Assembly (NCBI GenBank): GCA_964392925.1
Contig: CAYMRP010000001.1
Span: 51,945 to 115,944, forward strand
DNA: 64,000 nucleotides
DNA from: an uncultured Gammaproteobacteria bacterium
GTDB taxonomy: Bacteria; Patescibacteriota; Microgenomatia; Daviesbacterales; UBA10151
Reading direction: 5' to 3'
In this document: positions 1 through 53,876 of the stretch, piece by piece
Position numbering within the stretch: the first letter of the stretch is position 1
How the letters are laid out: each line of letters begins with the position of its first letter
The notes under the pieces: generated by a model
Databases searched by the model: none
What the model was told of the DNA's origin: nothing
The model's input: only the letters and a program-made list of their open reading frames with translations
Position numbers and translations under genes: made by a program

Positions 1-1
1 T

Positions 2-496
2 TTGGTTGCCGACAATGCCATAAATTTTTGGGGAATGTACTCTGGTTTTAACCAGCTCGATGCCGGGCAAACAGACTTTCTTCTCAGCTATGAGCATTGG
101 GGTTTCTTAATCTTCGGCCTTATCTTTTTACCCATTCTTATAAAATTCTTAAAGACTAAGTTCTCCTCGGAACTTCTGTTCTATTTCTTATTCCTATCTT
201 CGATAACCTACTTTTTTATCTTTACCCGTATGCATGAAAGATATCTTTTCTTCGGAGTCGTATTTGCTCAAATTCTAATGATGACGAATAAAAAATATTG
301 GTACAATTTATTCTTCTTCTCAGTGCTTTATTTTCTTAACCTATACAGGGGGCTTTATCAACCTGGTCTTCCATACCTTCCGGATCTATTAAAAAACATC
401 ACATTCTTGAACATATTTGTTATTTGTTACTTGTTACTCATTCTTTATAACCTCTATTACTTTATGTTTAAATTAAAAGGCAATGAAAAAAACTAG
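2..496 (+). CDS. C-terminal fragment (5' end lies outside the window) of a polytopic membrane protein, probably GT-C-like and related to the 12303-13457 and 62046-63185 paralogs
   Basis: The reading frame is open from the window edge. The protein is strongly hydrophobic with TM-like segments. Its C-terminal region (TRMHERYLFFGVVFAQ) has the same R-Y-hydrophobic pattern as the C-termini of the 12303 ORF (LPRYVLILFP) and the 62046 ORF (LPRYLIVIFP). The stop overlaps the next start by 14 nt. Confidence 0.45.
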   Translation: MVADNAINFWGMYSGFNQLDAGQTDFLLSYEHWGFLIFGLIFLPILIKFLKTKFSSELLFYFLFLSSITYFFIFTRMHERYLFFGVVFAQILMMTNKKYWYNLFFFSVLYFLNLYRGLYQPGLPYLPDLLKNITFLNIFVICYLLLILYNLYYFMFKLKGNEKN

Positions 497-2177
497 TTTA
501 ATTATCTTTCTTCTCATTCTTGCACTCGCCATATTCCTACGAGTCTATAAATTAGACGCTATTCCTACAGCACTTTTTGGTGATGAGATTGATGTTGGTT
601 ATCAGGCTTATTCTCTTTGGGAAACAGGCCGGGACCTGACTGGAAGGTTCATGCCTTTTTATCTTAGATCACTTTCTGAATTTAGAACTCCGCTTTATAT
701 TTATTCCGCAGTTCCTTTCGTCGGCATCTTTGGCCTGAACGAATGGGGGGTTAGGCTTCCGGCCGCTTTTTGGGGTCTAGTCTCAATAGCTGGAATATTC
801 CTGCTGGCCCGAAAACTCTTCAACACTCAAACAGCCCTTATTGCAATGTTTCTTACCTCAATTTCACCTTGGCATCTTCAATACTCCAGAGCTTCCTTTG
901 AAGTCACAATGCTGTTAAGTTTTATCATTTTTGGCGTATATTTTTTCTTACTTGGCCTGCAAAAAAACCGTTATCTTTTTCTCTCAGCAATCCTCTTAAT
1001 CTCAAGCATTTATATTTACTCCACAGCAGTAGCCTTCATCCCTCTCTTAGGTCTCTTACTTCTGATTATCCATTTTAAAGAAATCATCAAAATTAAAATC
1101 AAAAATATTCTTCTACTTATTCTAACCGTAGTCATAATTCTTATACCGGTTATTATGTCGATGTATACCGGCGAGGCAAAAGAACGATTTAGTTTAATTA
1201 GTATTTTTCAGGATTCAGTTTTAATAGATAAAATAAATCTCTCAAGAAAAGGCCAGGAGTTTTATAGTCCGGAGGGCGATGTCCAAAAAGCAAATCCTGA
1301 ATTTGAGAAAATTTTTTATAATAAACCTTTAATTTTTGCTCAGGTATTTATTACTAATTATTTTAAATCTCTTTCCCCAAGTTTCCTATTCTCAGAAGGT
1401 GATATTAATTTCCGCCACTCTATTCACGAAATGGGGGAGGAGTATTACTTTGAGGCAATCCTCTTTCTACTAGGTTTATTTGCCCTTATAAAACTTGATC
1501 CCAAAAAATCTGCTTTAGTTTTTGGCTGGCTGCTGCTGGCTCCAATTCCATCAAGTCTTACCGATGGGGGAGGATTCCACGCCACTCGGTTATTTATCAT
1601 GCTTCCTCCAATAGTGATGCTTTCAGGAGTCGGCGGCAGCTGGATTATAAATAACTTCAAATCAATTCATGTTAAATTAGTTGCCGCCTTTGTTATCGTT
1701 CTTTTTATCTTCAATTTTACGTTCTACCTTCACCGCTATTATGTTCATTATGGTCCCGAGTCTTGGCGCTGGTGGCACGTCGGCTTTAAAGAAGCCATGC
1801 TCTATATAAAATCAGAAGAAAATAATTATCAACAAGTCGGCTTCAACAATAGCTACGAGCCTTCTTTGATTAGATTCCTATTTTGGAATAAGGTAGACCC
1901 AGCACAATTCCATAAAAACTACCCTCAAACAATGGAAAAGTCAGAAATATTTAATACTTTTGAAGGATTTAAATACACTGATAAATACTTCTTCGGCACA
2001 ACCAACAAACCGATTTTTGAAAATCTGCCTCAGAATACTATTTATATGGTCTCTGCCAGAGATGAAGTTCCAGGTGATTGGGATTGGTCTAAAACTCCTC
2101 CAGCCGGCATAAAAGTTCTAAAAACTGTCTATAATCCTTTAGGCCAGCCCATTTTCTATGTTATTACCAAAGATTAA
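483..2177 (+). CDS. GT-C fold membrane glycosyltransferase, PMT/ArnT-like (GT39-type); paralog 1 of a six-gene tandem array
   Basis: 564 aa. An N-terminal TM helix is followed by a first-loop acidic motif (FGDEIDVGYQAYSLWETGRD) and then a VRLPAAFWG motif. There are at least 10 predicted TM segments and a hydrophilic C-terminal domain of about 150 aa. Confidence 0.75.
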   Translation: MKKTSLIIFLLILALAIFLRVYKLDAIPTALFGDEIDVGYQAYSLWETGRDLTGRFMPFYLRSLSEFRTPLYIYSAVPFVGIFGLNEWGVRLPAAFWGLVSIAGIFLLARKLFNTQTALIAMFLTSISPWHLQYSRASFEVTMLLSFIIFGVYFFLLGLQKNRYLFLSAILLISSIYIYSTAVAFIPLLGLLLLIIHFKEIIKIKIKNILLLILTVVIILIPVIMSMYTGEAKERFSLISIFQDSVLIDKINLSRKGQEFYSPEGDVQKANPEFEKIFYNKPLIFAQVFITNYFKSLSPSFLFSEGDINFRHSIHEMGEEYYFEAILFLLGLFALIKLDPKKSALVFGWLLLAPIPSSLTDGGGFHATRLFIMLPPIVMLSGVGGSWIINNFKSIHVKLVAAFVIVLFIFNFTFYLHRYYVHYGPESWRWWHVGFKEAMLYIKSEENNYQQVGFNNSYEPSLIRFLFWNKVDPAQFHKNYPQTMEKSEIFNTFEGFKYTDKYFFGTTNKPIFENLPQNTIYMVSARDEVPGDWDWSKTPPAGIKVLKTVYNPLGQPIFYVITKD

Positions 2178-3906
2178 ATTCACTCCTCTTCTAAAACCTC
2201 TTTTAGCTATTATTCTGGCATTAAGCCTGTTGGTCAGGGTTTGGCAAATTGATTCAACACCTCCTTCTCTCTATTGGGATGAAATGGATGTCGGTTACCA
2301 AGCTTATTCAATTTTAAAAACTGGCAAGGATTATTATGGTAATTATCCATTCTTAGTCGTTCATTCATTCGCTGATTTTAGAGCCCCTGTCCTAATCTAT
2401 ATAACTGTTCCTTTTGTCGCTATTTTCGGCTTAACGCCTTTGGCTGTCAGACTTCCCGAAGCTGTTCTCGGGACTCTTTCCGTTCTGCTAATTTATATTC
2501 TCACCCGCCAACTTTTTAAAAGCCAAAAAGCAGCACTTTCAGCAGCTCTCCTAACAGCCTTTGCTCCTTGGAGCATTCAGTATAGTCGGATCGCTTATGA
2601 AGCCATGCTTATGCTGGTTGTTTTCTTGGCCGGATTGATCTTTTTCTATAAAGGTCTTTCAAAACCAAAATATTTAATCATTTCAGCGGCACTTTTTTCT
2701 TTAGATCTCTTTGTCTACAACACTATGAAATTGTTCATTCCATTCATAGCAGCTTCTCTAATCGCGATTTATTATAAGCAGCTAACTCTTAACCGGTCAT
2801 CAATAATTGCCTCAATGATCTTAATCATCTCTTTGACTGCTGGCTTATACGGGACAATCTTTATGAACGGAGGTCAGCGTTTTAATGAGATTTCAATTTT
2901 TACTGATCCCCAAAATTCTAAGCAAGTCGATTATCTAAGGCATAATTCTCAACTTTCTTATAATGACAAACCATTAATCGGTGAAACACCTAGGTTTTTT
3001 GATAGGCTTTTTTATAATAAACCTGCACTTTTCATTGATAGGATTACTCAAAATTATCTCACTGCTTTCTCCTCTGAGTTTTTATTCGTTAAAGGCGATG
3101 CTAATCTCCGTCACTCTACGACCATAGTTGGCGAGCTCTATCGCATTGAAGCTTTAGCGATAATATTAGGTCTCGGTTTTCTACTAATTAATCTTAAAAA
3201 AAATCCCCGTGAATCTTTATTAATAATAATTTGGGTAATCATAGCCCCGCTTGCGGCCATCATCACCAGAGAAGGCTCAAACCATGCCACCAGACTCTTC
3301 ATGTTATTCCCTGCACTTACTATTGTGGGGGCATTAGGCGTTGAGTATCTTTCTCAGATACTGCCCCCAAAACTTAGATATTATGTTCTAACGCTACTTT
3401 TCGCTGTCTGGTTATTTTGCGTAGGCTCATTTTTAAATTTCTATTTTGGTGCTTATAACCTTGAAAGTGCAGAATCTTTCCAGTTTGGTTTTGACGAGGC
3501 TGTCCAAAAAGCTACAGAGAACAAAAACAGATACGATTATGTAATAATTGATGATAGGACAGATTCCGCTTTAATGAACTACTTATTCCTTACAAAACAC
3601 GATCCAGCTTTATTTCATACTCAAATCTCAACCCTAAAGTCCGATATTGCCGGATTCCCAGGCGATCAAATTGATAATGTCATTCTTATGAAGCCTTTAA
3701 TGAAGAATTGGGACAATGCTTTTAGTATCAATCAATTTGACCAAAGATACTTACTTATCGTTTCAGCAGAACAAATGAGTGAGCAAACTCCTGAAAAGCT
3801 GTATAAAAAACTCTCTCCAAATCAAACATTAATAGATACTATTTATTATAAATCCGGCCTGCCAGCATTTTATGTTATCTCCAGTCAAAAACCATCTCAA
3901 ATATGA
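2158..3906 (+). CDS. GT-C fold membrane glycosyltransferase, PMT/ArnT-like; paralog 2
   Basis: 582 aa with the same architecture as paralog 1 (YWDEMDVGYQAYSILKTGKD; VRLPEAVLG). It overlaps the upstream gene by 20 nt. The true start may be an internal Met. Confidence 0.75.
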   Translation: MLLPKIKFTPLLKPLLAIILALSLLVRVWQIDSTPPSLYWDEMDVGYQAYSILKTGKDYYGNYPFLVVHSFADFRAPVLIYITVPFVAIFGLTPLAVRLPEAVLGTLSVLLIYILTRQLFKSQKAALSAALLTAFAPWSIQYSRIAYEAMLMLVVFLAGLIFFYKGLSKPKYLIISAALFSLDLFVYNTMKLFIPFIAASLIAIYYKQLTLNRSSIIASMILIISLTAGLYGTIFMNGGQRFNEISIFTDPQNSKQVDYLRHNSQLSYNDKPLIGETPRFFDRLFYNKPALFIDRITQNYLTAFSSEFLFVKGDANLRHSTTIVGELYRIEALAIILGLGFLLINLKKNPRESLLIIIWVIIAPLAAIITREGSNHATRLFMLFPALTIVGALGVEYLSQILPPKLRYYVLTLLFAVWLFCVGSFLNFYFGAYNLESAESFQFGFDEAVQKATENKNRYDYVIIDDRTDSALMNYLFLTKHDPALFHTQISTLKSDIAGFPGDQIDNVILMKPLMKNWDNAFSINQFDQRYLLIVSAEQMSEQTPEKLYKKLSPNQTLIDTIYYKSGLPAFYVISSQKPSQI

Positions 3907-5558
3907 AATTCTTTAAAAACACCAGCCTGGTTCTCATTTTAATTATTGTTCTAGCCTCTTTTCTTAGACTGCCTTTATTAAATCTATATCCTGTGGGCGT
4001 AACCGGCGATGAAGCGGGTCAAGCTTATTCTGCCTATTCTATTTTAAAGACCGGAGCTGATGAATGGGGGGACTTCCTACCTATAAATCCCCGGGGCTTT
4101 GGTGACTATAAACCGCCGCTATTTATGTATCTGCTGGTCCCTTCTATCGCAGTCTTTGGTTTGACTGAATACGCCATCCGCCTTCCTTCCGCAATCGCCG
4201 GAATTCTGACAGTTTTAGTTATGTTTTACTTAGTAAAAAGATTATTTAACAATCGCACTTTGGGTTTGATTGCCAGTTTTCTTTTAGCAATTTCTCCGTG
4301 GCATGTTTATTACTCCAGACTAGGTTGGGAATCAAATATCGGTTTGTTATTTTTTATAATTGGAATTTGGTTATTTATAAAAGGTCTGGAGAAAACGAAA
4401 TTACTAAGTTTAAGTGTTTTAACCTTTGGCCTTGCCGGAATGTCCTATCATTCATTTAAACTCCTAGTTCCTCTAATCTTCATCGCTTTAATTATTATTT
4501 TTTGGAAACAGTTTAAATCCATAAATAAAAAATCTTTAATTGCCCCTCTCGCCGTCACCACAATTTTTGTTTTAGTTCTCGGTTATGGATTGGTATTTGC
4601 CGGAGCCTCAAGAAGAGCCGCAGATCAATCAATTCTAAAAGAAGAAAATCTTAGCGTCCTTCGTCAGAATCAGGTAGAAGACGGCCTCCCTCAACCCTTT
4701 AACAGAGTCGTTTTTAATAAATATCAATTCTTTATTTCTAAAGTCTCAGATAATTATTTGGGATATTATTCTCTCTCATTCCTTTTTGGTCCCCACCGAA
4801 GCGACGGCTCCATTTTAAATTTCCCCTCCATGGGACTTCTGTATATTTGGCAGCTGCCGCTTATTTTACTTGGCTTGTTTTATTTACTCAAAAACAAATC
4901 AAAAGGCAGCGCCGTAGTATTCGCTTGGACTTTACTTGCCCCAATTCCAGCCTCACTAACCCAGGATTACATGCATGCCGGACGGGCTCAAGCATTATTC
5001 CCAGCCCTAACAATAATTTCAGCCATTGGTCTATATTCCATATTCGAATTAATAAAAAATCCAAAATACCAAAACGCTTTCAAAATAATTACTGCCCTGG
5101 TAATAGTCCTCTCAGTTCTTTGGAGAGTAGATAACTACCTCTTTCATACATTTAATAAGAATTTAGGCGGGCTTCAGCCAGGTTATAAAGAAGTGATCAA
5201 TTTTACTGAAAACAACAAAAATTCTTACGATAAAATAATTTTCACCAAACACGGCTCTGAGCCTCATGCTTTTGTCAGTTTTTATGCCTCGACCGATCCA
5301 AAAGAGGTGCAATATGAATCACAAGACTGGAAAAGATTTGAAACTGAAGGTCTAAGATTCCTAGATATGATAGATTATAAATTAGGGAAGTATCACTTCA
5401 AAAATGTTGATTTCAACAGAGATAGAAACGAAATAAATGCTTTACTGGTCGCCCCACCAAAAGATATTCCTTCGGATATAATCCCTAAATTTGAAGCTAA
5501 AGATTCAAATGGAAAAGTTATGTTTGTAGTGATTGATACCAATGAAATTCCTAAGTAA
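3903..5558 (+). CDS. GT-C fold membrane glycosyltransferase, PMT/ArnT-like; paralog 3
   Basis: 551 aa (TGDEAGQAYSAYSILKTGADEWG; IRLPSAIAG). The start overlaps the upstream stop as ATGA. Confidence 0.75.
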   Translation: MKFFKNTSLVLILIIVLASFLRLPLLNLYPVGVTGDEAGQAYSAYSILKTGADEWGDFLPINPRGFGDYKPPLFMYLLVPSIAVFGLTEYAIRLPSAIAGILTVLVMFYLVKRLFNNRTLGLIASFLLAISPWHVYYSRLGWESNIGLLFFIIGIWLFIKGLEKTKLLSLSVLTFGLAGMSYHSFKLLVPLIFIALIIIFWKQFKSINKKSLIAPLAVTTIFVLVLGYGLVFAGASRRAADQSILKEENLSVLRQNQVEDGLPQPFNRVVFNKYQFFISKVSDNYLGYYSLSFLFGPHRSDGSILNFPSMGLLYIWQLPLILLGLFYLLKNKSKGSAVVFAWTLLAPIPASLTQDYMHAGRAQALFPALTIISAIGLYSIFELIKNPKYQNAFKIITALVIVLSVLWRVDNYLFHTFNKNLGGLQPGYKEVINFTENNKNSYDKIIFTKHGSEPHAFVSFYASTDPKEVQYESQDWKRFETEGLRFLDMIDYKLGKYHFKNVDFNRDRNEINALLVAPPKDIPSDIIPKFEAKDSNGKVMFVVIDTNEIPK

Positions 5559-7158
5559 TCATCTAATAATATTCATTTTTGTATTGGCCCTTTTTCTGAG
5601 ATTTGCAAATTTCTTTCAGGACACTCCGCCATCTATAAATTGGGATGAAGCATCCCTCGGCTACAATGCTTTTTCAATATTAGAAACTGGTAAAGATGAA
5701 TGGGGTAGAGTATTACCTTTAACATTTGAAGCTTTTGGTGACTATAAACTGCCAGGATATATTTACACTCTCGTGCCTTTTATTTCAATCTTTGGCCTAA
5801 ATGAAAATTCTGTAAGGTTTCCTTCAATAATTTTTGGATCGTTATCTGTGATATTTTTATATTTAGTAGTTCTGGAACTATCAAAAAAAAGAAACTGGGC
5901 TATTCTCTCCGCCATACTTTTAGCAATTTCTCCCTGGCACTTTTTTCTTTCCCGGATTGCTCTTGAAGCGAACTTAGCCTTAAGTTTTTTCTTGATAGGT
6001 TTATATTTTCTAGTCAAAGGACTTCAGAAAAATCTATATTTAATTCCATCATCACTAATGTTCGGTCTTTCAATTTTTACCTATAATTCCGCTCGAATCT
6101 TTGTCCCACTCTTCCTTTTCGGATTTTTAGTTCTTTATTGGAGGCAAATAAAATTAACAAAAACCTCAATCCTCTCAGCACTTATTCTGACGATATTTTT
6201 GTCAGTCGGTTTTTACCTTGCAGTCTTCCAGGATTCTAGCGCCCGTTATTATTGGGTTAGAATTCTAGATGAAGGTGCGATTAGTTTTCTTGATCAGGCT
6301 CGTAATACCTCGGCGTACCCAGATTTAATAACCAAATTAATTTATAATCGCCCCACCTATTTTGTATACAATTTTGTTTTAAATTATTTTAAACATTTAT
6401 CAGCGCAGTTCTTACTATTCTCGGGCGGCTCAAACTATCAATTCTCATTGCCAAATTGGGGACTTACGTACTTTATAGAAATACCATTCTTAATCTTTGG
6501 ACTCTTTAAACTTGTCAAACAAAAAATTGGTTGGGTTTTCATTCTATGGTTTTTAGCGGCCCCAATCCCTTCAGCTTTAACCAGAGAAGCGCCTCATGCA
6601 TTGCGTTCAATATTTATGCTGGGCAGTCTTCAAATAATAACCGCCTTTGGCATGATTCAGTTCTTCAAACTTCTGGAACATAAAAAATTATTCTCTAAAA
6701 TTTCTTATTCCATTATCGGTTTGTTCATTCTAATTAATGCCGGTCTCTATTTTAATAATTACTTTATGGAATACCCCAAACAATACTCTCAGGCTTGGCA
6801 ATATGGCTATAAACAAGCCATAGATGAAGTTAGGGCAGAATACGATATGTATCCCAAGATCTATTTCACAAAGTATTATGGTGAACCGCACATTTTTTAT
6901 CTTTTTTTCTCCAAGTATGATCCCTCTTTGTATCAAGCGAATGAAACCCTACTAAGAGACAGCCACACTAATTGGCGTTGGGTCGATAGATTAGATAAAA
7001 TATACTTTATAAATGATTGGGAAATGGTTGAGAAAATGAAATCAGAAAGTAATGCTCTGGTTATAGCTTCTCCAGGAAATGTCCCGGAGAACAGTCGGAA
7101 ATTAAAAACCATTTATTTTCTGGATGGGAGTATAGCATTTGAAATCGTCGAAATTTAA
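5533..7158 (+). CDS. GT-C fold membrane glycosyltransferase, PMT/ArnT-like; paralog 4
   Basis: 541 aa (NWDEASLGYNAFSILETGKDEWG; VRFPSIIFG). An alternative start at Met4 (position 5542) is possible. Confidence 0.75.
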   Translation: MIPMKFLSNHLIIFIFVLALFLRFANFFQDTPPSINWDEASLGYNAFSILETGKDEWGRVLPLTFEAFGDYKLPGYIYTLVPFISIFGLNENSVRFPSIIFGSLSVIFLYLVVLELSKKRNWAILSAILLAISPWHFFLSRIALEANLALSFFLIGLYFLVKGLQKNLYLIPSSLMFGLSIFTYNSARIFVPLFLFGFLVLYWRQIKLTKTSILSALILTIFLSVGFYLAVFQDSSARYYWVRILDEGAISFLDQARNTSAYPDLITKLIYNRPTYFVYNFVLNYFKHLSAQFLLFSGGSNYQFSLPNWGLTYFIEIPFLIFGLFKLVKQKIGWVFILWFLAAPIPSALTREAPHALRSIFMLGSLQIITAFGMIQFFKLLEHKKLFSKISYSIIGLFILINAGLYFNNYFMEYPKQYSQAWQYGYKQAIDEVRAEYDMYPKIYFTKYYGEPHIFYLFFSKYDPSLYQANETLLRDSHTNWRWVDRLDKIYFINDWEMVEKMKSESNALVIASPGNVPENSRKLKTIYFLDGSIAFEIVEI

Positions 7159-8797
7159 AATAATAGTCTTATCTTTAATTATCCTTTTAGGGCTCTTTCT
7201 TAGAGTTTATAAACTAGATACTATTCCGCCTGGACTCACTTGGGATGAAGCAGCCCTAGGCTATAATGCTTACTCAATTACTCAGACTCTTCGAGACGAG
7301 TACGGAAACTTTCTCCCCCTAACTTTGAAGTCTTTTGGTGACTACAAACCAGCTCTTTATGCCTATTTAACAATCCCATTTATCATGATTCTTGGCCTAA
7401 ATGAAATAGCAGTCAGGTTGCCGTCAGTTCTAGCTGGTATAGGTTTAATAATCATTATATTCTTATTAGTTAGGCGAATATTTGGAAATGACTGGCTCGC
7501 TATATCAGCCGCTTTCTTTACAGCAATTTCTCCTCTTTCAATTCAATTTTCAAGAGCGGGTTGGGAGTCAAACGTTGCCGTTTTTCTTAACGTAACCGGT
7601 CTTTATTTATTTCTTAAAGCCCTCCAAAAACCAAAATATTTTATTTTCTCAGCAATTCTGTTTTCGCTTTCCCTGGTTTGTTATCAGGCCTCTAAGATCT
7701 TTGTCCCCATTATTTTATTTGGATTATTCATTCTTTACAGAAAACAAATTTCTTTCACCAAACCATTTATCAGTGGCTTACTTATTATCATCTTTAGTTT
7801 AATTTCTGTTTTTACCTCAACTTTTATTCTTGGCCAATCCAATCGCTTAGCCGCCCAAAATTATTTTGCTTATGCCCGGCCCGAAGAACGAATTCAAACT
7901 ATAAGTAATGAAGATAGTAAAAGTATTAATAGTCCAGAGTTTCAAATTCTCCACGGCGAATGGTGGAGTTTTCTCACCGGAACTTTTGAAAGATATTTAA
8001 CTTATTTTTCACCTGATGTCCTTTTTATTAAAGGCGATTACTCTCCGCGCCATAATGTTCCGGATCTTGGAATATTCAGTTTATACGGTTTAATACTTAT
8101 TCCTTTTGGCTTCTATTTACTCTGGCGGAAAAAAGAATCAGACAGGAAAATAATATTCTTTTGGTTGTTTACAGCTTCAATTCCAGCTGTACTCTCGAGA
8201 GACTTAATAAGCATGGTCAGAGCATTAAATCTAATTTTCCCAATCATCATCCTTGAGGCATTTGGTCTCTATTTCCTTGTAAATAAACTCTCTCAAGTTC
8301 TCCGGATTTATAGATTAATCCCTCTATCAGCGTTTCTAATAGTTATATTCTTAAATCTCGCTTTGTTTTTAGATTTCTATTTCGTCCATATGCCGAAAGA
8401 GAGCTCCTCAGATTGGATGTCCGGCTATAAGCAAACAATAAAAGATTTGCCTGAAATATCTAAATATAATCAAGTAGTTTTCTCTGACAAATACGGCCAG
8501 CCCTACATCTATTATCTTTTTTATACAAAGTATCCTCCTGAAAAGTTTCAAACTCAGGCTGTTTTAGAACAAAAAACAGTTGATGTAGGTACGGTCCGTA
8601 AAATTGATAATATAGAATTCAGACCAATTAACTGGCCCGTCGATAGAGGTTTAGAGAACACTCTTTTGATTGGTACCGGTTTCGAGATCCCTGAAGAGGA
8701 TGTTGTAACAGAAAAAAAATCTAAGAAATTATCAGAAACAAATTTTTTTGATGGAGAAGTAGCCTTTAAAGTTATTGAAAACAGTTATGATCAGTAA
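7139..8797 (+). CDS. GT-C fold membrane glycosyltransferase, PMT/ArnT-like; paralog 5
   Basis: 552 aa (TWDEAALGYNAYSITQTLRDEYG; VRLPSVLAG). Confidence 0.75.
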   Translation: MKSSKFKIIVLSLIILLGLFLRVYKLDTIPPGLTWDEAALGYNAYSITQTLRDEYGNFLPLTLKSFGDYKPALYAYLTIPFIMILGLNEIAVRLPSVLAGIGLIIIIFLLVRRIFGNDWLAISAAFFTAISPLSIQFSRAGWESNVAVFLNVTGLYLFLKALQKPKYFIFSAILFSLSLVCYQASKIFVPIILFGLFILYRKQISFTKPFISGLLIIIFSLISVFTSTFILGQSNRLAAQNYFAYARPEERIQTISNEDSKSINSPEFQILHGEWWSFLTGTFERYLTYFSPDVLFIKGDYSPRHNVPDLGIFSLYGLILIPFGFYLLWRKKESDRKIIFFWLFTASIPAVLSRDLISMVRALNLIFPIIILEAFGLYFLVNKLSQVLRIYRLIPLSAFLIVIFLNLALFLDFYFVHMPKESSSDWMSGYKQTIKDLPEISKYNQVVFSDKYGQPYIYYLFYTKYPPEKFQTQAVLEQKTVDVGTVRKIDNIEFRPINWPVDRGLENTLLIGTGFEIPEEDVVTEKKSKKLSETNFFDGEVAFKVIENSYDQ

Positions 8798-10415
8798 AAC
8801 TAAAATATTTCTAATACTAATTGTTACTTTGGGATTCTTCCTAAGAGTTATTGCAGTAGATAAATTTCCTGCTGGCTTTAATGCTGATGAAGCAGCCATC
8901 GGTTATAACGCTTATTCAATTATCAAAACTGGCAGGGATGAATATGGGGAAATTCTTCCGCTAAGTTTTAAATCATTCGGGGATTACAAGCCAGGTCTCT
9001 ATTTTTATTTCGTTTTGCCTTTCGTTGCTGCTTTGGGTTTAAATGAATTTGCCGTTAGAATTCCCTCAGTCTTACTCGGCACCGGAATGATTATCCTTGT
9101 TTATTTAATTGCAAAACAAATATTCAAAAGTCCAGCATCGGGTGTTGCCGCCGCCCTTCTTCTGGCCATTAATCCTTGGGCAATTCATTTCTCAAGAGGT
9201 GGTTGGGAAGCAAACGCTGCTACCTTCTTTATCACTCTAGGAGTCTATTTATTCATCAAAGGCTTAGAAAAATTTAAATACATTTTCTTCAGTTTATTGT
9301 CGTTTCTAGTTTCAATATATTTATATCAATCTCCAAGATTAGTAGTTCCTCTTTTAATTCTTGGATTCATAATTATTTTCTGGAAAGAGCTTTTCGCTCT
9401 CATAAAAAAGCACTACAAAAGAACTCTTATTTCGTTAGTAATTCTTTTTTTCCTCAGTCTGCCTGTGGCATTTCAATTTCTATCCGGCGGCGGTAGTGAA
9501 AGGTTTCAGGGACTTTCTTTTTTATCTGATGGTGGACCATCACTGAGAGTAAATGAATTGCGAGGGGAACACGCTGATCCAAATAGCTTAATTGCAAAAT
9601 CAGAACATAATAAAATAACTGCTTACGGCTTAAGCTTTTTAGGCCACTACTTAGACCATTTTTCCTCTGATTTTCTTTTTGTCAATGGTGATCCCTTAAT
9701 TCGCAATAAAACTCCAGAAACTGGCCAATTCTTCGTCATACAATCTCTCTTTTTGATAATCGGTCTTTTCCTTTTAATAAAACTTGAAACAAAACTTAAG
9801 TTCTTATTAATAATCTGGATTCTGGTTTCTCCGCTCGCCTCATCGTTAACCTATCAAACCCCAAATGCTATCAGAGCACTCAGCATGGTAGTTCCGCTGA
9901 CTTTGATTATGGGGTACGGATTTGTGGGTCTATTTAAAGTACTAAACAAAAAACCTTTTCAAATTCTGGCGGGTGTAATAGTTGTGCTATTCCTGAGTTT
10001 TGAATTTACGCACTACGTCGAGAGTTATTATATCCACGCTCCTAAAAGATATCCGCTTTCCTGGGAATATGGCTTCTCTGAAATGGTCGAAAAACTCAAT
10101 GTATATGAAAATAATTTTAATAAAGTTGTCATCACTGATAGATATGATCAGCCTTACATCCTGCTGCTATTCTACAAACGTTATGACCCCCAAAAATATC
10201 AGCCCCAGGCAGTTTTAAGTTCCCGGGATAAATTCAATTATGGAACAATCAGAAATTTTGATAAATACGAATTTAAAAAAGTCACTTCTGAAGAAATTAA
10301 GCAGAACAAAGATACCTTATATATTGTCACACCAGAGGAGGCAGGTGATAACATTGTGATTGATCGGATAAACTTTCCCAACGGAGAACCGGCATTTCTA
10401 TTTGTAAGATCATAA
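8775..10415 (+). CDS. GT-C fold membrane glycosyltransferase, PMT/ArnT-like; paralog 6
   Basis: 546 aa (NADEAAIGYNAYSIIKTGRDEYG; VRIPSVLLG). Confidence 0.75.
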   Translation: MKTVMISKTKIFLILIVTLGFFLRVIAVDKFPAGFNADEAAIGYNAYSIIKTGRDEYGEILPLSFKSFGDYKPGLYFYFVLPFVAALGLNEFAVRIPSVLLGTGMIILVYLIAKQIFKSPASGVAAALLLAINPWAIHFSRGGWEANAATFFITLGVYLFIKGLEKFKYIFFSLLSFLVSIYLYQSPRLVVPLLILGFIIIFWKELFALIKKHYKRTLISLVILFFLSLPVAFQFLSGGGSERFQGLSFLSDGGPSLRVNELRGEHADPNSLIAKSEHNKITAYGLSFLGHYLDHFSSDFLFVNGDPLIRNKTPETGQFFVIQSLFLIIGLFLLIKLETKLKFLLIIWILVSPLASSLTYQTPNAIRALSMVVPLTLIMGYGFVGLFKVLNKKPFQILAGVIVVLFLSFEFTHYVESYYIHAPKRYPLSWEYGFSEMVEKLNVYENNFNKVVITDRYDQPYILLLFYKRYDPQKYQPQAVLSSRDKFNYGTIRNFDKYEFKKVTSEEIKQNKDTLYIVTPEEAGDNIVIDRINFPNGEPAFLFVRS

Positions 10416-10418
10416 ACT

Positions 10419-11285
10419 ATGACAAAAATAAAATTATCAGCCGCCATAGCCACATATAATGAAGAAGAAAATATAGCCGAGTGTTTGGACTCCATTAAAG
10501 ATATTGTCGACGAAATTGTTATCGTTGACGGCTCTTCCACAGATAAAACCGTAGAAATAGCCCGTAAATATAATGCCGTCATTGTCATTACTGACAATCC
10601 TCCAATTTTTCATATTAACAAGCAAAAAGCCTTTGATAAGGCATCAGGTGAATGGGTCCTTTATTTGGATGCAGATGAGAGGGTTAGCAAGCCATTGGGT
10701 CAGGAGATTTTAAGAGTAATTTCTATGGACAATTCTCAAATTGAAGATTACCAGCAGAGCATTAATAAAAGAAAACTATTCTTAAGACATCAGCATCTCC
10801 TGGAAGAGAGAGATGGAAAAATAGGCACTGTTGACGGAGATTATGTCGCTTTTTTCTTCCCCCGTTTAAACTACTTTTTAGGTAAATTCCTCAAATATGG
10901 CGGAGTTTACCCAGACGGGGTTATCAGGCTTTTTAAAAATAACAAAGCTTATCTGCCCGCCAAAGATGTTCACGAGCAAATGGTAGTTGACGGCAAAGTT
11001 GGTTGGCTGGCAAATGATCTAGTTCATTACGATTCCAAAACTTTCAGCAGATATTTGCAAAGAAACAGCCGCTACATCGATTTACTGGCTGCTGATCTGA
11101 GAGAACAACATTTGAAGAAAACATTATTTAATTTTGTTGATTATACTTTTATTAAGCCAACTCATTGGTTTCTGATGACTTCAATACGCAACAAAGGAAT
11201 TCTTGATGGCCCTCAAGGTTTAATCTTTTCATTCTTTTCTGCTCTCAGATTCCCAAGAGCATATTGGAGGTATATAACTAAGTGA
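10419..11285 (+). CDS. Family 2 glycosyltransferase (GT-A), possibly a polyprenyl-phosphate sugar synthase
   Basis: 288 aa. The N-terminal GT2 signature reads AAIATYNEEENIAECLDSI ... VIVDGSSTDKT ... LDADE. The protein is soluble with no TM N-terminus. Confidence 0.7.
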   Translation: MTKIKLSAAIATYNEEENIAECLDSIKDIVDEIVIVDGSSTDKTVEIARKYNAVIVITDNPPIFHINKQKAFDKASGEWVLYLDADERVSKPLGQEILRVISMDNSQIEDYQQSINKRKLFLRHQHLLEERDGKIGTVDGDYVAFFFPRLNYFLGKFLKYGGVYPDGVIRLFKNNKAYLPAKDVHEQMVVDGKVGWLANDLVHYDSKTFSRYLQRNSRYIDLLAADLREQHLKKTLFNFVDYTFIKPTHWFLMTSIRNKGILDGPQGLIFSFFSALRFPRAYWRYITK

Positions 11286-12316
11286 AAGTCGGTATCGATA
11301 TTTCCTCACTTCATTCGCTAAGTAAGGGCCGTGGTATAGGCTTCTATACTCAAGCGCTGATAGATTCTCTAAAAAAGTATACTGATGTTGAAATAAAAGT
11401 AATTGAATCCATCAATCAGCAGCAGAATGTAGATCTCATTCATTATCCCTTTTTTGATTTTTTCAGACCAACTCTAAAAATTAATAATTATATCCCCACA
11501 GTAGTCACCATTCATGATGTAATCCCTTTATTATTCCCTAAGAATTATCCCCCGGGGATTAGAGGCCGGGTAAATCTATTCCTCCAAAAACAATCGCTAA
11601 ATAAAACTAAAGCAATTATCACCGATTCTAAATCATCAACCAACGATATTACTAAAATTTTAAAAGTCCCGCAAAATAAAGTTCACACCGTTTACTTAGC
11701 GAGTTCTGAGCATTTTACAAAACTTACTGAAAAAGAAATAAACGAAAGAACCAAAAAGTTCAATCTTCCTGAAATATTTGCGCTGTACAGCGGCGGTGTA
11801 AATTGGAATAAGAATCTTATTAATCAAACCGAAGCTGCCCTAAAAAGCGATATCGATCTGGTTTTAGTCGGTGGAGGTTTTGATAACAAAAACAATTTAG
11901 ATCATCCAGAGATGAAAGAATTCAAACAATTTCTTAATAAGTATCAAAACAATCCTAAAATCCATATCTTAGGTTTTGTCTCAGATGAAGAACTAGTCGG
12001 GTTAATGAATAGAGCAAAAGCACTCCTATTTGCCTCTCGTTATGAAGGATTTGGTCTCCCAATCTTGGAGTCACAAGCCTGTGGCACTCCTATAATAACT
12101 GGAAATATATCATCAATGCCGGAAGTTGCGGGTGACGGGGCAATTCTCGTTGATCCCAACTCTGTTGATCAAATTAGCTTAAGTCTAAGTAACATTATTC
12201 ATGACGAAGATAATCGTAAACTAGTAATAAAAAAAGGATTTGAGAATTTAAATAATTTTTCCTGGAAAAAAACAGCAGTCGAAACACTAAAAGTTTACCA
12301 AAATGCGCTGGGATAA
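11282..12316 (+). CDS. Family 4 (GT-B, GT1 superfamily) glycosyltransferase
   Basis: 344 aa. The C-terminal GT4 motif reads EGFGLPILESQACGTPIITGNISSMPEVAGDGAILVDP. Confidence 0.75.
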   Translation: MKVGIDISSLHSLSKGRGIGFYTQALIDSLKKYTDVEIKVIESINQQQNVDLIHYPFFDFFRPTLKINNYIPTVVTIHDVIPLLFPKNYPPGIRGRVNLFLQKQSLNKTKAIITDSKSSTNDITKILKVPQNKVHTVYLASSEHFTKLTEKEINERTKKFNLPEIFALYSGGVNWNKNLINQTEAALKSDIDLVLVGGGFDNKNNLDHPEMKEFKQFLNKYQNNPKIHILGFVSDEELVGLMNRAKALLFASRYEGFGLPILESQACGTPIITGNISSMPEVAGDGAILVDPNSVDQISLSLSNIIHDEDNRKLVIKKGFENLNNFSWKKTAVETLKVYQNALG

Positions 12317-13457
12317 ATTTCTAAAATTCGATTCAAATTACTCGGCTATTATCTGCCTTTTTATAATTTGGAAAATCGTACTTTTACTTGTTCTCCTCGC
12401 CTCATTTGAATTCATTCCTCTCTACAGCAAACACCTTCTCGGTGGAGGCTTTGATAATTATCTAGTCAATTTTTACTCTCTGCCATGGGCAAATTTTGAT
12501 GGAGAACATTTTACTTCAATTGCCCAATTCGGTTACAGACAATACCAGCAAGCATTTTTCCCTCTATATCCAAATCTTATTTCCATTGGTATGAATATAT
12601 TTGGCGAGAATATTAGAATTGCCGCAATTAGCGGATTGATAATATCATCAGTCGCTTTTATATCAGCTCTCGGACTTTTCTATAAATTATTAAAACTAGA
12701 TTACAACAGAAATTTTTCTTTGGGTGTTATTCTTATTCTACTTTTATATCCCGCCTCCTTTTACTTTAATGCTGTATATACTGAATCAATCTTTTTATTT
12801 TTAGTAGTAGCCTCATTCTATTTTTTTAGAACTAAAAGCTATTTTTGGGCTGGAATTTTTGGCTTTTTAGCCTCAACAACCAGAGTGTTCGGCGTATTAT
12901 TATTCTTAAGTTTTATCATTGATGCCCTAGCAAGTAAAACTCCTTTAAGAAAAATTTATTGGATTCTGTTAATCCCTGCAGGTCTTATAAGTTACATGGC
13001 CTATCTTTATTATAGCGTTGGTGATCCGCTGGCATTCTATAGTCTTCAGCTAATAGTTGGGGAGCAGCATCAGCGGGGTATTGTTCTCTTTCCTCAAGTA
13101 GTCTTCCGTTATCTAAAAATCATAGTAGATGTAGATTCTATTTCTCCACTTTTGACGACAATTCTTTTCGAATTAGCAACCGGAATTGTTTTTATGCTTC
13201 TGCCCATAATTGGTTTATTCAAAAAAGTCAGACTCTCTTATTTATTCTTTGCTTTTGCCGGTTTTGTTTTGCCAACTATCCAAGGAAGTTTTTCTTCCCT
13301 TCCCCGCTATGTTCTGATATTATTCCCTAGCTTTATAGTCCTGGCACTTATGGTTAAAAATTTACCAACCTCAATAAAAATTCTACTGGCTCTTATTAGC
13401 TTCTGTCTGTTGATACTTGAAACTGCCTTTTTCTTAAGAGGGTATTGGGTAGCCTGA
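12303..13457 (+). CDS. Polytopic membrane protein, putative GT-C glycosyltransferase (PIG-V/GT87-like); paralog of 62046-63185
   Basis: 384 aa with about 10 TM segments. It shares the motifs WANFDGEHF and FSSLPRYVLILFP with the 62046 ORF (WANFDGVHY; FSGLPRYLIVIFP). Confidence 0.55.
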   Translation: MRWDKFLKFDSNYSAIICLFIIWKIVLLLVLLASFEFIPLYSKHLLGGGFDNYLVNFYSLPWANFDGEHFTSIAQFGYRQYQQAFFPLYPNLISIGMNIFGENIRIAAISGLIISSVAFISALGLFYKLLKLDYNRNFSLGVILILLLYPASFYFNAVYTESIFLFLVVASFYFFRTKSYFWAGIFGFLASTTRVFGVLLFLSFIIDALASKTPLRKIYWILLIPAGLISYMAYLYYSVGDPLAFYSLQLIVGEQHQRGIVLFPQVVFRYLKIIVDVDSISPLLTTILFELATGIVFMLLPIIGLFKKVRLSYLFFAFAGFVLPTIQGSFSSLPRYVLILFPSFIVLALMVKNLPTSIKILLALISFCLLILETAFFLRGYWVA

Positions 13458-14128
13458 TGAAAACCGCTGTTGTTTTACCAATATTCAACGAACAAAAGAA
13501 TCTTAGCAGTTTTCTAAACACTCTCGCAAAAATCACACTTCCTGTTTTTCTAGTTAACGATGGATCAACTGACAAAACCCTCGAAATAATTAATAAAAAG
13601 CACCTAACAAAAAAAGTCACTCTAATGTCGCACAAAATTAATCTTGGCAAGGGCTCAGCAATGAGAACTGGCGCAGAGGCTGCTTTTCAGGCTGGATATG
13701 AAGCCGTCATATTTATGGATGCCGACGGTCAACATAGCACCGAAGATCTAGAAAAATTTACCAAACAATTAAATACCGGAAACTATGAGGTAGTGTTGGG
13801 ATCACGTAATCTACATCACGGCGTGCCCCTAATTAGGTTTCTAGGCAATAAATTTGCTTCAGTTTTGATATCCTTATTGTTTGGGATTTATGTATCAGAT
13901 ATACTTTCTGGATTCAGGGCAGTGACAAAAACTGGATATAAAAAAATGAATCTTGAGTCAGCCGGATACGGGATTGAAACAGAAATAATCGTAAAAATTG
14001 CCAAACTTAATTTAAAAAGTACCGAGGTTCCAATCCAAACGATCTACCATGATAAAAATAAAGGCGTAACAATTTTGGATTCTATAGGAATTCTTGCAGA
14101 TGTTTTTAAGTGGAAATTGAACTTATGA
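13445..14128 (+). CDS. GT2 polyprenyl-phosphate sugar synthase (Dpm1/GtrB-like)
   Basis: 227 aa (VLPIFNEQKNL ... LVNDGSTDKT ... DADGQH). It is immediately followed by a small DUF2304-like membrane protein, which is a known two-gene module. Confidence 0.7.
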   Translation: MGSLMKTAVVLPIFNEQKNLSSFLNTLAKITLPVFLVNDGSTDKTLEIINKKHLTKKVTLMSHKINLGKGSAMRTGAEAAFQAGYEAVIFMDADGQHSTEDLEKFTKQLNTGNYEVVLGSRNLHHGVPLIRFLGNKFASVLISLLFGIYVSDILSGFRAVTKTGYKKMNLESAGYGIETEIIVKIAKLNLKSTEVPIQTIYHDKNKGVTILDSIGILADVFKWKLNL

Positions 14129-14472
14129 TAATTGGTCTACAACTCATCGCCATAATATTTTCATTAATTATGATCTACTTCGCTTACCTTCACTTCATGA
14201 GAGGTGAACTAAATAAAGGCGAAATTGCTTCATGGTGGGTAATATGGACCGCTACAATAATCGTTACAATCTTCCCTGATTTACTAAGCGGCTTTGCTAG
14301 AACTATTTCAATAAATCGCGTTTTCGATTTAATGGTCGTCGGTGGATTTATCGTAGTTATTTTTATGTCATACAAAGCCTATGTCGGAACAAAAAAAATT
14401 CAGCGGAAAATTGACGAATTCATCCGCAAAGAATCCTTAAAGGACCTCCAAAATGGCAAAAAAAGTAAGTAA
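14110..14472 (+). CDS. Small membrane protein, DUF2304-like partner of the polyprenyl-phosphate GT2
   Basis: 120 aa with 3-4 TM helices. It overlaps the 3' end of the GT2 gene. Confidence 0.5.
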   Translation: MEIELMIIGLQLIAIIFSLIMIYFAYLHFMRGELNKGEIASWWVIWTATIIVTIFPDLLSGFARTISINRVFDLMVVGGFIVVIFMSYKAYVGTKKIQRKIDEFIRKESLKDLQNGKKSK

Positions 14473-15253: not shown

Positions 15254-15254
15254 G

Positions 15255-16205: not shown

Positions 16206-16220
16206 ATCCTCACAATATAA

Positions 16221-18050: not shown

Positions 18051-18051
18051 C

Positions 18052-18840: not shown

Positions 18841-18954
18841 CAGATTTACTTTATACTAAATTCATTTACTAAATTTAGCAATTCCCAAATCTAGAGATGG
18901 TAAATTTCCTAGTTGTAAAAAAAAAGAATTTAATCAAAAATATGCATATCTATA
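18841..18954. promoter_or_regulatory. Divergent intergenic region with an AT-rich near-palindrome (TTACTAAATTTAGCAA); candidate bidirectional promoter/operator
   Basis: This is the only sizeable non-coding gap in the island (114 bp), lying between divergently transcribed genes. The imperfect inverted repeat and the duplicated ACTAAATT were read directly from the sequence. Confidence 0.2.
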
Positions 18955-26277: not shown

Positions 26278-26281
26278 ATTT

Positions 26282-26911: not shown

Positions 26912-26920
26912 ACGAAGGCC

Positions 26921-53875: not shown

Positions 53876-53876
53876 A

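Follow-up and report, generated by a model that had tools for sequence, protein, structure and literature searches.

A conserved tandem array of PMT_2-family glycosyltransferase genes in a Microgenomates-group genome and its relatives

Why would a Microgenomates-group bacterium keep six membrane glycosyltransferase genes of the same family directly behind one another, and does each of the encoded proteins have a task of its own? The question is raised by the first part of a 64,000-nucleotide stretch of DNA, further referred to as the window. A sequence-only reading had described a six-gene array there and knew of no functional description of a tandem array of this size; literature searches gave no description of the array. 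The GT-C fold family is already known. It is the conserved array that is new.

Genes, fold and active site

The six PMT_2-family GT-C glycosyltransferases are encoded on the + strand by consecutive, co-directional open reading frames of 541-582 aa, located between positions 483 and 10415 exactly as the sequence-only reading had placed them. They are G1 (483..2177, 564 aa), founder of the ortholog group of the same name; G2 (2158..3906, 582 aa; PMT_2 44.1 bits, PMT 30.2 bits); G3 (3903..5558, 551 aa; PMT_2 60.9 bits); G4 (5533..7158, 541 aa from TTG 5533; 53.5 and 35.7 bits for PMT_2 and PMT); G5 (7139..8797, 552 aa; 52.4 and 34.7 bits) and G6 (8775..10415, 546 aa from TTG 8775; 37.8 and 25 bits). 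For G4 and G6, the codons ATG 5542 (538 aa) and ATG 8787 (542 aa) are more likely starts than the TTG codons. They were chosen when genes were called independently on a 98%-identical relative; in the gene call of the close relative L051, G4 starts at the ATG.

Membership of the GT-C/PMT_2 family is borne out by HMM searches and by fold. All six copies exceed the Pfam gathering cut-off of PMT_2 (37.8-60.9 compared to 26.1 bits), and five of them pass that of PMT (PF02366) as well. ArnT or Pmt orthologues they are not, with NCBIfam equivalog scores of 16-24 bits against cut-offs of 567-800. The AF2 model has a pLDDT of 89.9, and the fold hits of the array proteins include the EmbA-EmbB and Pmt1-Pmt2 structures.

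The acidic motifs that had been quoted for the first loop (DEIDVGYQAYS and its variants) are present in all six copies, as is the V/I-R-L/F/I-P motif. In G1 numbering, D34, E35, R91 and P93 are invariant in the array. So are D51, R136, E140, R235 and R369, which, together with D34, E35 and R91, are 94-100% conserved per ortholog group. In a HMMER alignment, array residues correspond to D55/E56, E84/K85 and D158 of ArnT, and one residue maps to the carrier-phosphate-binding Arg before TM10 of the GT-C/PMT clan (residue roles according to PMC7801869). The catalytic residues are kept in every ortholog group and no copy has lost them.

The predicted topology has about 11 TM helices; the N-terminus lies inside and the C-terminal domain outside. 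Among the active-site residues, outer loop 1 holds D34-E35, outer loop 2 R136/E140 and outer loop 4 R235, and R369 lies immediately ahead of TM10; these residues and E66/R68 are predicted to face outward. An extracytoplasmic acidic loop had been anticipated, and this orientation is strongly supported because the positive-inside rule is obeyed: across 53 homologues, K+R density is 0.34 in the predicted cytoplasmic loops versus 0.10 (0.096) in the short outer loops. The C-terminal soluble domain is real and spans about 140 aa (about 150 had been estimated), with helices and strands from about residue 430. This alpha/beta domain belongs to no recognised family, and the copies contain no MIR or TPR domain. 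Identity between the copies peaks around the catalytic loop (46%) and falls to its minimum of 25-26% in outer loop 4 and the C-terminal domain, a profile that would fit a common chemistry with differing acceptors.

With the longest ORFs, the five junctions overlap by 20, 4, 26, 20 and 23 nt, which reproduces the 4-26 nt reported before; with the likelier ATG starts the overlap is 17 nt (5542) and 11 nt (8787), and all five junctions still overlap. These overlaps had been read as a sign of translational coupling. The overlaps themselves stand, but the array shares them with much of the window: among its other same-strand junctions, 62% overlap too (median -4 nt with longest-ORF starts). Because overlapping junctions are normal in this genome, they argue only weakly for special coupling.

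Age, order and selection

With G1 as query, 49 related loci were retrieved, and those with a specific taxon name are mostly from Microgenomates-group CPR bacteria. Nearly all carry such arrays, with 4-8 copies in nearly all loci that are long enough to show them. Best-hit assignment and a neighbour-joining tree (without support values) yield five ancient ortholog groups, G1, G3, G4, G5 and G6, mostly with one member per locus. The clades contain 33 (G3), 31 (G4), 28 (G5) and 22 (G6) loci, and the order G1-G3-G4-G5-G6 is kept in most complete loci. Protein identity is 32-36% for every pair of the six copies compared to 36-79% between orthologues, so that orthologues are closer in most loci, although the margins are small in the most distant ones, above all for G3 and G5. 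G2 is sister to the G1 clade. Besides the window, just L001 and L002 of the retrieved loci have it, and so does L051. Judged by this placement, G2 is a lineage-specific duplicate of G1, and the ancestral array had five members, not six. With this qualification, the idea of an old, maintained expansion is supported. Extra or inverted copies are found in L002, L004, L010, L014 and L048.

The copies had also been described as strongly diverged in nucleotide sequence. Indeed, the copies share 43-49% of their codon-aligned nucleotides, with saturation at the third positions (31-37%). A repeat search of the array returned only stretches of 21-62 nt with 60-86% identity, mostly at conserved motifs. 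Low nucleotide identity and the lack of long repeats therefore exclude a recent or assembly duplication. The six genes are additionally present in the independent assemblies L001 (60-79% nucleotide identity) and L051 (79-94%).

All copies are under strong purifying selection, with a dN/dS of about 0.03-0.10 (G2 0.081, G3 0.083, G4 0.105, G5 0.058, G6 0.055). The dS of G6 (1.63) is far above that of G1-G5. Compared to the close relative, G6 and the adjacent gene GT2a differ far more than G1-G5 do, a pattern suggestive of recombination.

Neighbouring genes

The co-directional block extends beyond the six genes on both sides. Upstream, the last 164 codons of a GT-C-type gene cut by the window start, here called X (2..496, + strand), overlap G1 by 14 nt. 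In most related loci, an X homologue directly precedes G1; in L002 and L051 the full-length protein has 425 aa and is a polytopic membrane protein. The X profile matches the PMT_2 array profile in hhalign (92% probability, E 5e-7) and, in the PDB, GPI mannosyltransferase 1 (E 2e-6) and ALG6 (E 2e-3), while Pfam gives only sporadic sub-threshold ALG3/GT87 matches. From these profile matches, X is a divergent GT-C glycosyltransferase of PIG-M/ALG-like type. In relatives, two YfhO GT-C proteins are encoded upstream in the same cluster.

Downstream, all genes are on the + strand as well. GT2a (10419..11285; Glycos_transf_2 77.3 bits) is a soluble family-2 glycosyltransferase in which no hydrophobic segment was found. 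Its homologues come right after G6 in more than 20 loci, and most loci that reach this far have the gene in that place. In many related loci it is followed, as here, by a cytoplasmic GT4-family (GT-B) glycosyltransferase gene (11282..12316; Glycos_transf_1 102.5 bits). Next comes a 384-aa polytopic membrane protein (12303..13457), a PIG-V-like/PMT_2-like GT-C candidate that also follows GT4 in L005, L019 and L021. The window copy has no match in a Pfam search; of four homologues, two match PMT_2 (best E 1e-6) and one PIG-V (PF04188, E 4e-4). The candidate has a conserved NFDGxH...AFFP.YP motif.

The following GT2 (13445..14128; Glycos_transf_2 82.8 bits) resembles polyprenyl-phosphate-sugar synthases of the PpgS/AglJ/GacI type; in NCBIfam it scores best with PpgS (99.7 bits) and AglJ (99.3 bits) but stays under both cut-offs. 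It adjoins a gene for a small DUF2304 membrane protein, an activating partner of GacJ/Rv3632 type (14110..14472; PF10066 61.7 compared to 25.5 bits). This arrangement matches a precedent, as GacJ (DUF2304) binds GacI and stimulates it, and PpgS is served in the same way by Rv3632 (bioRxiv 10.1101/180810). The cluster ends with a third GT2 (14453..15253; Glycos_transf_2 99.7 bits), an NDP-sugar epimerase/reductase resembling GDP-L-fucose synthase (15255..16205; Epimerase 171 bits, NCBIfam Fcl 278.6 bits where 500 are required) and a seventh PMT_2-type GT-C of 609 aa (16221..18050; PMT_2 41 bits, DUF2142 32.7 bits). An HMM built from the six copies does not match this last protein, which belongs to another subfamily. 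No gene of the cluster was recognised as a GtrA/GtcA-type flippase or as an initiating phosphoglycosyl transferase. Elsewhere in the window, there are sugar-nucleotide pathways, a Wzx flippase and an ABC-2 exporter.

A putative glycan assembly pathway and its alternatives

We lean towards a glycan that six polyprenyl-phosphate-sugar-dependent GT-C enzymes with non-redundant roles assemble step by step outside the membrane. The cytoplasmic GT2 and GT4 enzymes of the cluster would provide a primer, and the GT2-DUF2304 pair, possibly also GT2a, would load sugars onto polyprenyl phosphate. The glycan would be flipped and then extended or decorated outside by X, G1-G6, the PIG-V-like protein and, in relatives, the two YfhO proteins. 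All six copies would be catalytically competent and act at the outer surface of the cytoplasmic membrane, and each, we infer, would make a different linkage or step on one conserved cell-envelope glycoconjugate. Acceptor candidates are a lipid-linked glycan, a wall polymer or a protein.

Such a pathway would resemble the building of mycobacterial arabinogalactan and LAM by Emb, Aft and Mpt enzymes; the mycobacterial and corynebacterial envelope GT-Cs (the EmbC-EmbA-EmbB tandem, AftA-D, MptA-C, PimE) are among the closest systems. It would also resemble the extension of the lipid-linked oligosaccharide in the ER lumen by ALG3/9/12/6/8/10. However, the genes of these ALG enzymes and of PIG-M/PIG-V are dispersed, the enzymes belong to GT22, GT57, GT58, GT50 and GT76, and identity is about 12%, whereas G1-G6 have the DE motif of the PMT/ArnT/STT3 class. 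ArnT (GT83, undecaprenyl-phosphate-L-Ara4N:lipid A transferase, PDB 5ezm/5f15) is 12-14% identical to the array proteins, matches its equivalog model in one copy only (16 compared to 567 bits), has 13 TM helices instead of about 11 and is encoded by a single gene; none of the arn operon partners was seen among the genes scanned. CPR bacteria are generally considered to lack lipid A, and the acceptor of the array would therefore differ from that of ArnT.

Firstly, the copies may be protein O-glycosyltransferases with differing protein or sequon specificities, like PMT1-7, TMTC1-4 and actinobacterial Pmt, each modifying its own targets among the secreted, S-layer or pilus proteins during their passage out of the membrane. 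This is unlikely. The NCBIfam protein O-mannosyltransferase equivalog gives 22-24 bits against a cut-off of 800, and where the GT39 PMTs (yeast Pmt1/2/4, actinobacterial Pmt) have MIR and the TMTCs TPR acceptor-binding domains, the array proteins have their C-terminal alpha/beta domain. Among the fold hits, ALG12 and ArnT, whose acceptors are lipid-linked, score equally well or better. Moreover, PMT genes are not known to form conserved ordered arrays or to have GT2, GT4 or PIG-like partners, and the GT2, GT4, PIG-M-like, PIG-V-like and YfhO-type partners found here are typical of glycan or lipoglycan assembly and not of the attachment of single sugars in protein O-glycosylation.

Secondly, and with a rather small chance of being correct, the copies may be parallel side-chain decorators, each being the GT-C arm of its own GT2, flippase and GT-C system through which a wall or teichoic-acid-like polymer receives an optional sugar, mainly to vary the surface and so evade phage or host. 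The GacI/GacJ-type pair and the YfhO-type neighbours in relatives recall the Gram-positive systems GacI/GacJ/GacL, CsbB-GtcA-YfhO and GtlA/GtlB, in which a GT2 synthase and a DUF2304 helper serve a GT-C that transfers outside. The lineage-specific gains (G2 and the extra or inverted copies) and the possible recombination at G6 and GT2a also speak for decoration. However, these Gram-positive systems have one GT-C per decoration, are often strain-variable or patchy, and include a flippase, of which the GtrA/GtcA type was not recognised beside the array GT-Cs. Here, five to six paralogues stay in fixed order, with five groups kept down to orthologue identities of 36-45% and every copy under purifying selection, and candidate polyprenyl-phosphate-sugar synthases in the cluster are far fewer than GT-Cs.

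Thirdly, the six proteins could be subunits of one hetero-oligomeric membrane complex, with gene order and overlaps ensuring stoichiometric co-production and some subunits being mainly structural or substrate-channelling. The conserved order and the overlapping or abutting junctions agree with this, and both EmbA-EmbB (PDB 7bvf) and Pmt1-Pmt2 (PDB 6p25/6p2r), precedents for heterodimers of tandem-encoded GT-C paralogues, are among the fold hits. As an account of the array it is nevertheless improbable: catalytic residues are kept in all copies, therefore none looks purely structural, and overlap is a genome-wide habit. A complex is compatible with stepwise assembly and does not exclude it; the retained gene order and close spacing would agree with a hetero-oligomeric complex too, or with action in parallel and not in sequence.

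Lastly, an assembly artefact or recent undifferentiated tandem amplification, for which the repeated architecture and nothing further speaks, is practically inconceivable and is refuted by the saturated third positions, the lack of long near-identical repeats and the recurrence of the genes in independent assemblies.

Stepwise assembly remains the explanation that we prefer. The recurrence of five of the copies, in unchanged order, in lineages related to this tiny-genome CPR bacterium points to an undescribed multi-step extracytoplasmic sugar-assembly line.

The array genes and their divergence

The array consists of six GT-C genes, referred to here as G1 to G6. All of them lie on the forward strand and the ORF list places them exactly where a sequence-only reading had claimed six head-to-tail PMT/ArnT-like paralogs with overlapping junctions: G1 at 483-2177 (564 aa), G2 at 2158-3906 (582 aa), G3 at 3903-5558 (551 aa), G4 at 5533-7158 (541 aa), G5 at 7139-8797 (552 aa) and G6 at 8775-10415 (546 aa). 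The first-loop motifs and the V/I-R-x-P motif quoted in that reading can all be seen in an alignment of the six proteins. This alignment has 48 invariant columns, including D34, E35, D51, R91, P93, S135, R136, E140, R235 and R369 (residue numbers are those of G1).

The junctions do overlap, by 20, 4, 26, 20 and 23 nt from G1 to G6 when the longest ORFs are taken. For G4 and G6, translation more likely begins at an ATG a few codons further on, which shortens the G3/G4 and G5/G6 overlaps to 17 and 11 nt; these starts were also picked by an independent gene call, made on a relative with 98% identity. The overlaps are not peculiar to the array, however. Among the remaining same-strand junctions of the window, 62% overlap as well when the longest ORFs are used, and overlap was therefore dropped as a specific sign of coupling. 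A promoter and terminator scan of positions 1-19000 was uninformative, with counts at shuffle level. Across the junction of G6 with GT2a, the GT2 gene directly after it, lies an antisense ORF of 119 aa (10238-10597, reverse strand), which is probably spurious because forward-strand coding is gene-dense there.

All pairs among the six proteins are 32-36% identical. At the nucleotide level, codon-aligned identity is 43-49%, with 31-37% at third positions, and the DNA repeats in the array are limited to stretches of 21-62 nt with 60-86% identity, mostly over conserved motifs. The strong nucleotide divergence that had been claimed for the copies is thus real, and together with the absence of long repeats it excludes an assembly artefact or a recent amplification.

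Fold, topology and active site

The proposed family assignment was supported by HMM searches. All six proteins score above the gathering cut-off of Pfam PMT_2 (PF13231; 37.8-60.9 bits vs 26.1), and five of them also exceed that of PF02366 PMT, which is a looser model. By contrast, the NCBIfam matches are all far sub-threshold, including those to the Agl23-type model TIGR03663. The ArnT equivalog NF009784 is matched by G3 alone (16.4 bits vs a cut-off of 567) and the Pmt equivalog NF058602 by G2 and G3 alone (22.1 and 24.4 bits vs 800), which rules out ArnT or Pmt orthology. An arn operon context is not seen either: the scanned genes of the window lack ArnA/ArnB/ArnD-type domains, and the GT2 neighbours reach 32 bits with the ArnC model, vs a cut-off of 529. 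Since they pass Pfam PMT_2 and remain far below the NCBIfam thresholds, G1 to G6 are, as judged by these scores, members of the superfamily and orthologues of no named enzyme.

A GT-C fold is also predicted by structure modeling. An AlphaFold2 model of G1, built from a 53-sequence alignment (pLDDT 89.9, pTM 0.89), matched STT3A/B, ArnT, AglB, ALG12, PglB and Pmt4 in a Foldseek search of the PDB (E 4e-8 to 2e-4), while a sequence search of solved structures detected ArnT alone (E 0.004). As Kyte-Doolittle windows broke the TM helices into fragments of no use, the topology was taken from the helices of the model and a positive-inside count over the alignment of 53 homologues. We propose 11 TM helices, a cytoplasmic N-terminus and an extracytoplasmic C-terminal domain. 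In the homologues, the K+R density is 0.34 in predicted cytoplasmic segments vs 0.096 in the short outer loops, where nearly all basic residues are the invariant R136 and R369. These densities back the earlier suggestion that loop 1 and the C-terminal domain are extracytoplasmic, and every invariant charged residue would face outward in this predicted topology.

The roles of these residues can be proposed from a HMMER alignment to ArnT and from the functions compiled in PMC7801869. D34 and E35 correspond to the catalytic pair in outer loop 1 (ArnT D55/E56, Pmt1 D77/E78), E66 and R68 to ArnT E84/K85 (metal and carrier phosphate), E140, located before TM4, to ArnT D158 (contact with acceptor and sugar), and R369, just before TM10, to the conserved arginine of STT3, PglB and AglB that binds the carrier phosphate. 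By analogy with ArnT K85 and the STT3/PglB/AglB arginine, R68 and R369 would bind the phosphate of the polyprenyl carrier (PMC7801869). D34 and E35 do not vary among the six copies and reach 100% conservation in each of the six clades (178 sequences). R68, which is K in G3-G6, and R369 are likewise kept in every clade, and D34, E35, D51, R91, R136, E140, Y179, R235 and R369 are 94-100% conserved per clade. Because of this conservation of the catalytic residues, no clade looks like a dead enzyme. The idea that some copies are pseudoenzymes was rejected, as every clade retains D34, E35, R136, E140, R235 and R369. Computationally, G1 to G6 are thus predicted to be six outward-facing, catalytically intact GT-C enzymes. 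Identity among them peaks at 46% around the catalytic loop and drops to its lowest values, 26% and 25%, in outer loop 4 and the C-terminal domain, a pattern as would be expected for shared donor chemistry and diverged acceptor recognition.

Conservation of the array and its neighborhood

In a scan of one genome per species, 49 loci encode relatives of G1. Where a specific taxon label is given, almost all are Daviesbacteria, Shapirobacteria, Amesbacteria, Collierbacteria or Woesebacteria, which belong to the Microgenomates group of the Patescibacteria/CPR; a few are labelled Parcubacteria, Patescibacteria group or Spirochaetia. Many array-bearing species-representative records (L001-L007, L012-L015 and others) carry the label ‘uncultured Gammaproteobacteria bacterium’ and single ones ‘Spirochaetia’ or ‘Mariniplasma’. 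These labels look like placeholders or wrong taxonomy, in the case of the ‘Gammaproteobacteria’ because their loci clearly resemble the Microgenomates ones in kind.

With an HMM of the six copies, four to eight consecutive full-length relatives are found in almost every locus of sufficient length. Best-hit assignment and a neighbour-joining tree of 178 array members agree on five old clades (G1, G3, G4, G5 and G6), mostly with one member per locus and in the order G1-G3-G4-G5-G6 in most complete loci. In the tree, G2 is the sister of G1; outside the window it was found only in the closest relatives L001 and L002 among the loci of the one-genome-per-species set, and in L051, another close relative. 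In most loci the orthologues, at 36-79% identity, resemble each other more than the paralogues do, with small best-hit margins in the most distant loci, above all for G3 and G5. In a comparison with L051, to which nucleotide identity is 79-94%, each of the six copies has a dN/dS within 0.03-0.10. The array was thus rightly regarded as an old, maintained expansion, and the computed clades argue for five ancient, non-interchangeable lineages in fixed order. The subfamily is large and diverse: the six-copy profile retrieves 6,429 cluster representatives (50% identity, E <= 1e-30) from a library of 1.8 billion proteins.

Several local variations were observed. Relative to L051, dS is 0.27-0.47 for G1-G5, 1.63 for G6 and 0.73 for GT2a (window 8787-11285 vs L051 18305-20805); because the values of G6 and GT2a exceed those of G1-G5, a recombination or replacement boundary near the G5/G6 junction is suggested. 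Lineage-specific insertions are tolerated in a number of loci (L002, L004, L010, L014, L038, L039 and L048). L002 has an extra 248-aa ORF and a divergent PMT_2 copy between G1 and G2 (11673-14073), and an inverted G3-like copy is present in L004 (11850-13580, reverse strand) and L014 (9990-11747, reverse strand). Some Shapirobacteria-type loci have duplicated G5-like or G1-like copies. In L050, on an 838-kb contig, a gene inside the array (13341-15719) breaks the series of GT-Cs; its 792-aa product joins a GT2 domain to a large membrane domain with a faint PTPS_related match, and is possibly a fused polyprenyl-phosphate-sugar synthase/GT-C-like protein.

Around the array extends a larger block of genes that are found again in related loci. 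Directly upstream of G1 in most loci is X, a polytopic protein of about 425 aa whose C-terminal third is encoded at the window start (2-496). Following G6 are GT2a (10419-11285), a GT4 (11282-12316) and a 384-aa PIG-V-like GT-C candidate (12303-13457). Single-sequence Pfam scans were empty for X and for the 384-aa protein, and their GT-C assignment comes from profile-level searches. In hhalign, the N-terminal GT-C module of X aligns with the PMT_2 array profile (92%, E 5e-7); in the PDB, X matches GPI mannosyltransferase 1 (E 2e-6) and also ALG6. On these profile matches it is another GT-C. Next comes a GT2 (13445-14128) with PpgS (99.7 bits) and AglJ (99.3 bits) as best NCBIfam matches, well below the equivalog cut-offs of 370 and 325, overlapped by a DUF2304 gene (14110-14472; Pfam 61.7 vs 25.5). 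In the known pairs GacI/GacJ and PpgS/Rv3632, the DUF2304 protein (GacJ or Rv3632) binds its Und-P-sugar synthase (GacI or PpgS) and activates it, and the synthases supply GT-C enzymes (bioRxiv 10.1101/180810). It is plausible from these matches that a polyprenyl-phosphate-sugar synthase is encoded in the same cluster. A further GT2 (14453-15253), a GDP-fucose-synthase-like reductase (15255-16205) and a seventh PMT_2 protein (16221-18050) end this uninterrupted co-directional run of 15 genes. No GtrA-like match, which would stand for the dedicated small flippase (GtrA/GtcA family) of a three-component glycosylation system of GT2 synthase, flippase and GT-C, was found among the cluster genes; the sole flippase-type gene found encodes a Wzx-like flippase (47109-48593). 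In relatives, a GT2, two YfhO-type GT-Cs, a GT2 and a GT4 lie upstream of X. The 838-kb contig shows the same theme, with genes matching MptA_B_family and, weakly, GT87.

The window is about 97% coding and one glycan-biosynthesis island throughout. Its remainder carries pathways for nonulosonic acid, heptose-type sugars and deoxy sugars, together with methyltransferases, acyltransferases, an ABC-2 exporter (53141-54656) and more GT-C-like proteins. The nonulosonic-acid genes are a UDP-GlcNAc 2-epimerase (38817-39968), NeuB (40826-41878), a cytidylyltransferase-SDR fusion (42868-44391) and a PseB-like gene (44376-45386); a HisH/HisF-like amidotransferase pair is located at 36440-37968. SIS, GHMP kinase and nucleotidyltransferase-HAD genes of the heptose-type pathway (24035-27928), a sugar C-methyltransferase (22752-23969), an acyltransferase_3 (29017-30114) and a GT11 fucosyltransferase-like gene (50028-50927) were also annotated. 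GT-C-type genes outside the array are present at 16221-18050, 30111-31661, 62046-63185 and 63107-64000, with more candidates at 31654-33201 (reverse), 50987-53134, 58609-60324 (reverse) and 60406-62049. They include three more PMT_2 proteins (the partial one at the window end has an array-like WLDEAIS motif), a second PIG-V-like paralogue (motif WANFDGVHY...FFPFFPL) and four large polytopic proteins that have no Pfam match and look GT-C-like at the N-terminus. In total, the window may encode some 15 GT-C-type proteins. The forward strand has a negative GC skew over essentially the whole of 1-64000, irrespective of gene orientation (cumulative -3.76). A compositional disparity between strands has been reported for a complete Microgenomates genome (PMC7143001), and the skew is reminiscent of it.

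Possible function and significance

We lean towards a reading in which the array enzymes act at the outer membrane face, each with a distinct transfer onto the same conserved glycoconjugate of the envelope. Functional analogues would then be the ALG3/9/12/6/8/10 series and, in Corynebacteriales, the Emb/Aft/Mpt set. With the Emb/Aft/Mpt sets the array shares several non-redundant GT-C paralogues that are encoded together, each forming its own ortholog group, as seen in the five ordered clades with purifying selection on all. It differs in sequence family, since the array proteins fell outside the Emb/Aft/Mpt families in a sequence membership test. An unlikely alternative is PMT-like protein O-glycosylation with several specificities, for which Ser/Thr of proteins would be the acceptor; Pmt orthology is ruled out, and the fold of the C-terminal domain is uninformative on the acceptor. 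Parallel, optional side-chain decoration, disfavoured by the near one-to-one orthology and the fixed order, is less probable again. Least probable is a hetero-oligomeric complex, which would be compatible with separate transfers onto one glycoconjugate.

More tentatively, and with some doubt, the model of separate transfers can be broadened. Microgenomates CPR would build their main envelope glycoconjugate largely outside the membrane, through an ancient fixed-order line of at least eight GT-Cs fed by polyprenyl-phosphate sugars. X, G1, G3-G6, the PIG-V-like enzyme and the YfhO-type enzymes would be its members.

The fold and the family are already known, and databases label homologues ‘ArnT-like’. 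What is new, as far as we could find, is that the array is a conserved, ordered ortholog set, five-membered in general and six-membered here, across the sampled Microgenomates lineages, that the surrounding block has three or more additional GT-C types, and that the ‘ArnT/Pmt’ labels fail membership tests. A literature search on GT-C, PMT_2, ArnT and the cell envelope in CPR/Microgenomates found no description of such arrays, in line with the earlier remark that no tandem array of this size was known to have been functionally described; among the CPR papers examined, one mentions ‘29 glycosyl transferases’ and otherwise nothing relevant was found.

Much of bacterial diversity belongs to the CPR/Patescibacteria, whose genomes are minimal and whose presumed lifestyle is attachment to other cells. 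To our knowledge, their envelope chemistry is essentially unknown. Six paralogous GT-Cs take more than 10 kb in a 64-kb window made up entirely of glycan genes, and five of them are kept in order in most complete loci, in lineages with orthologues that are only 36-45% identical. Given this investment and conserved order, the product of the array is likely central to the biology of these bacteria. With its defined set of genes, its predicted catalytic residues and a candidate synthase for the donor, the array offers a testable entry to CPR surface glycans. It also lends itself to studies of how acceptor specificity is split among GT-C paralogues and of whether bacteria have a counterpart of the sequential ALG or Emb/Aft pathways, and it corrects a misleading automatic ‘ArnT-like’ name for thousands of metagenomic proteins (the 6,429 cluster representatives at E <= 1e-30). 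If the broader assembly line is real, it would be an independently evolved bacterial counterpart of the mycobacterial arabinogalactan/LAM machinery or of the ER-lumenal ALG series, maintained despite genomes of about 1 Mb, and its glycan may be the surface structure with which these presumed episymbionts contact their hosts.
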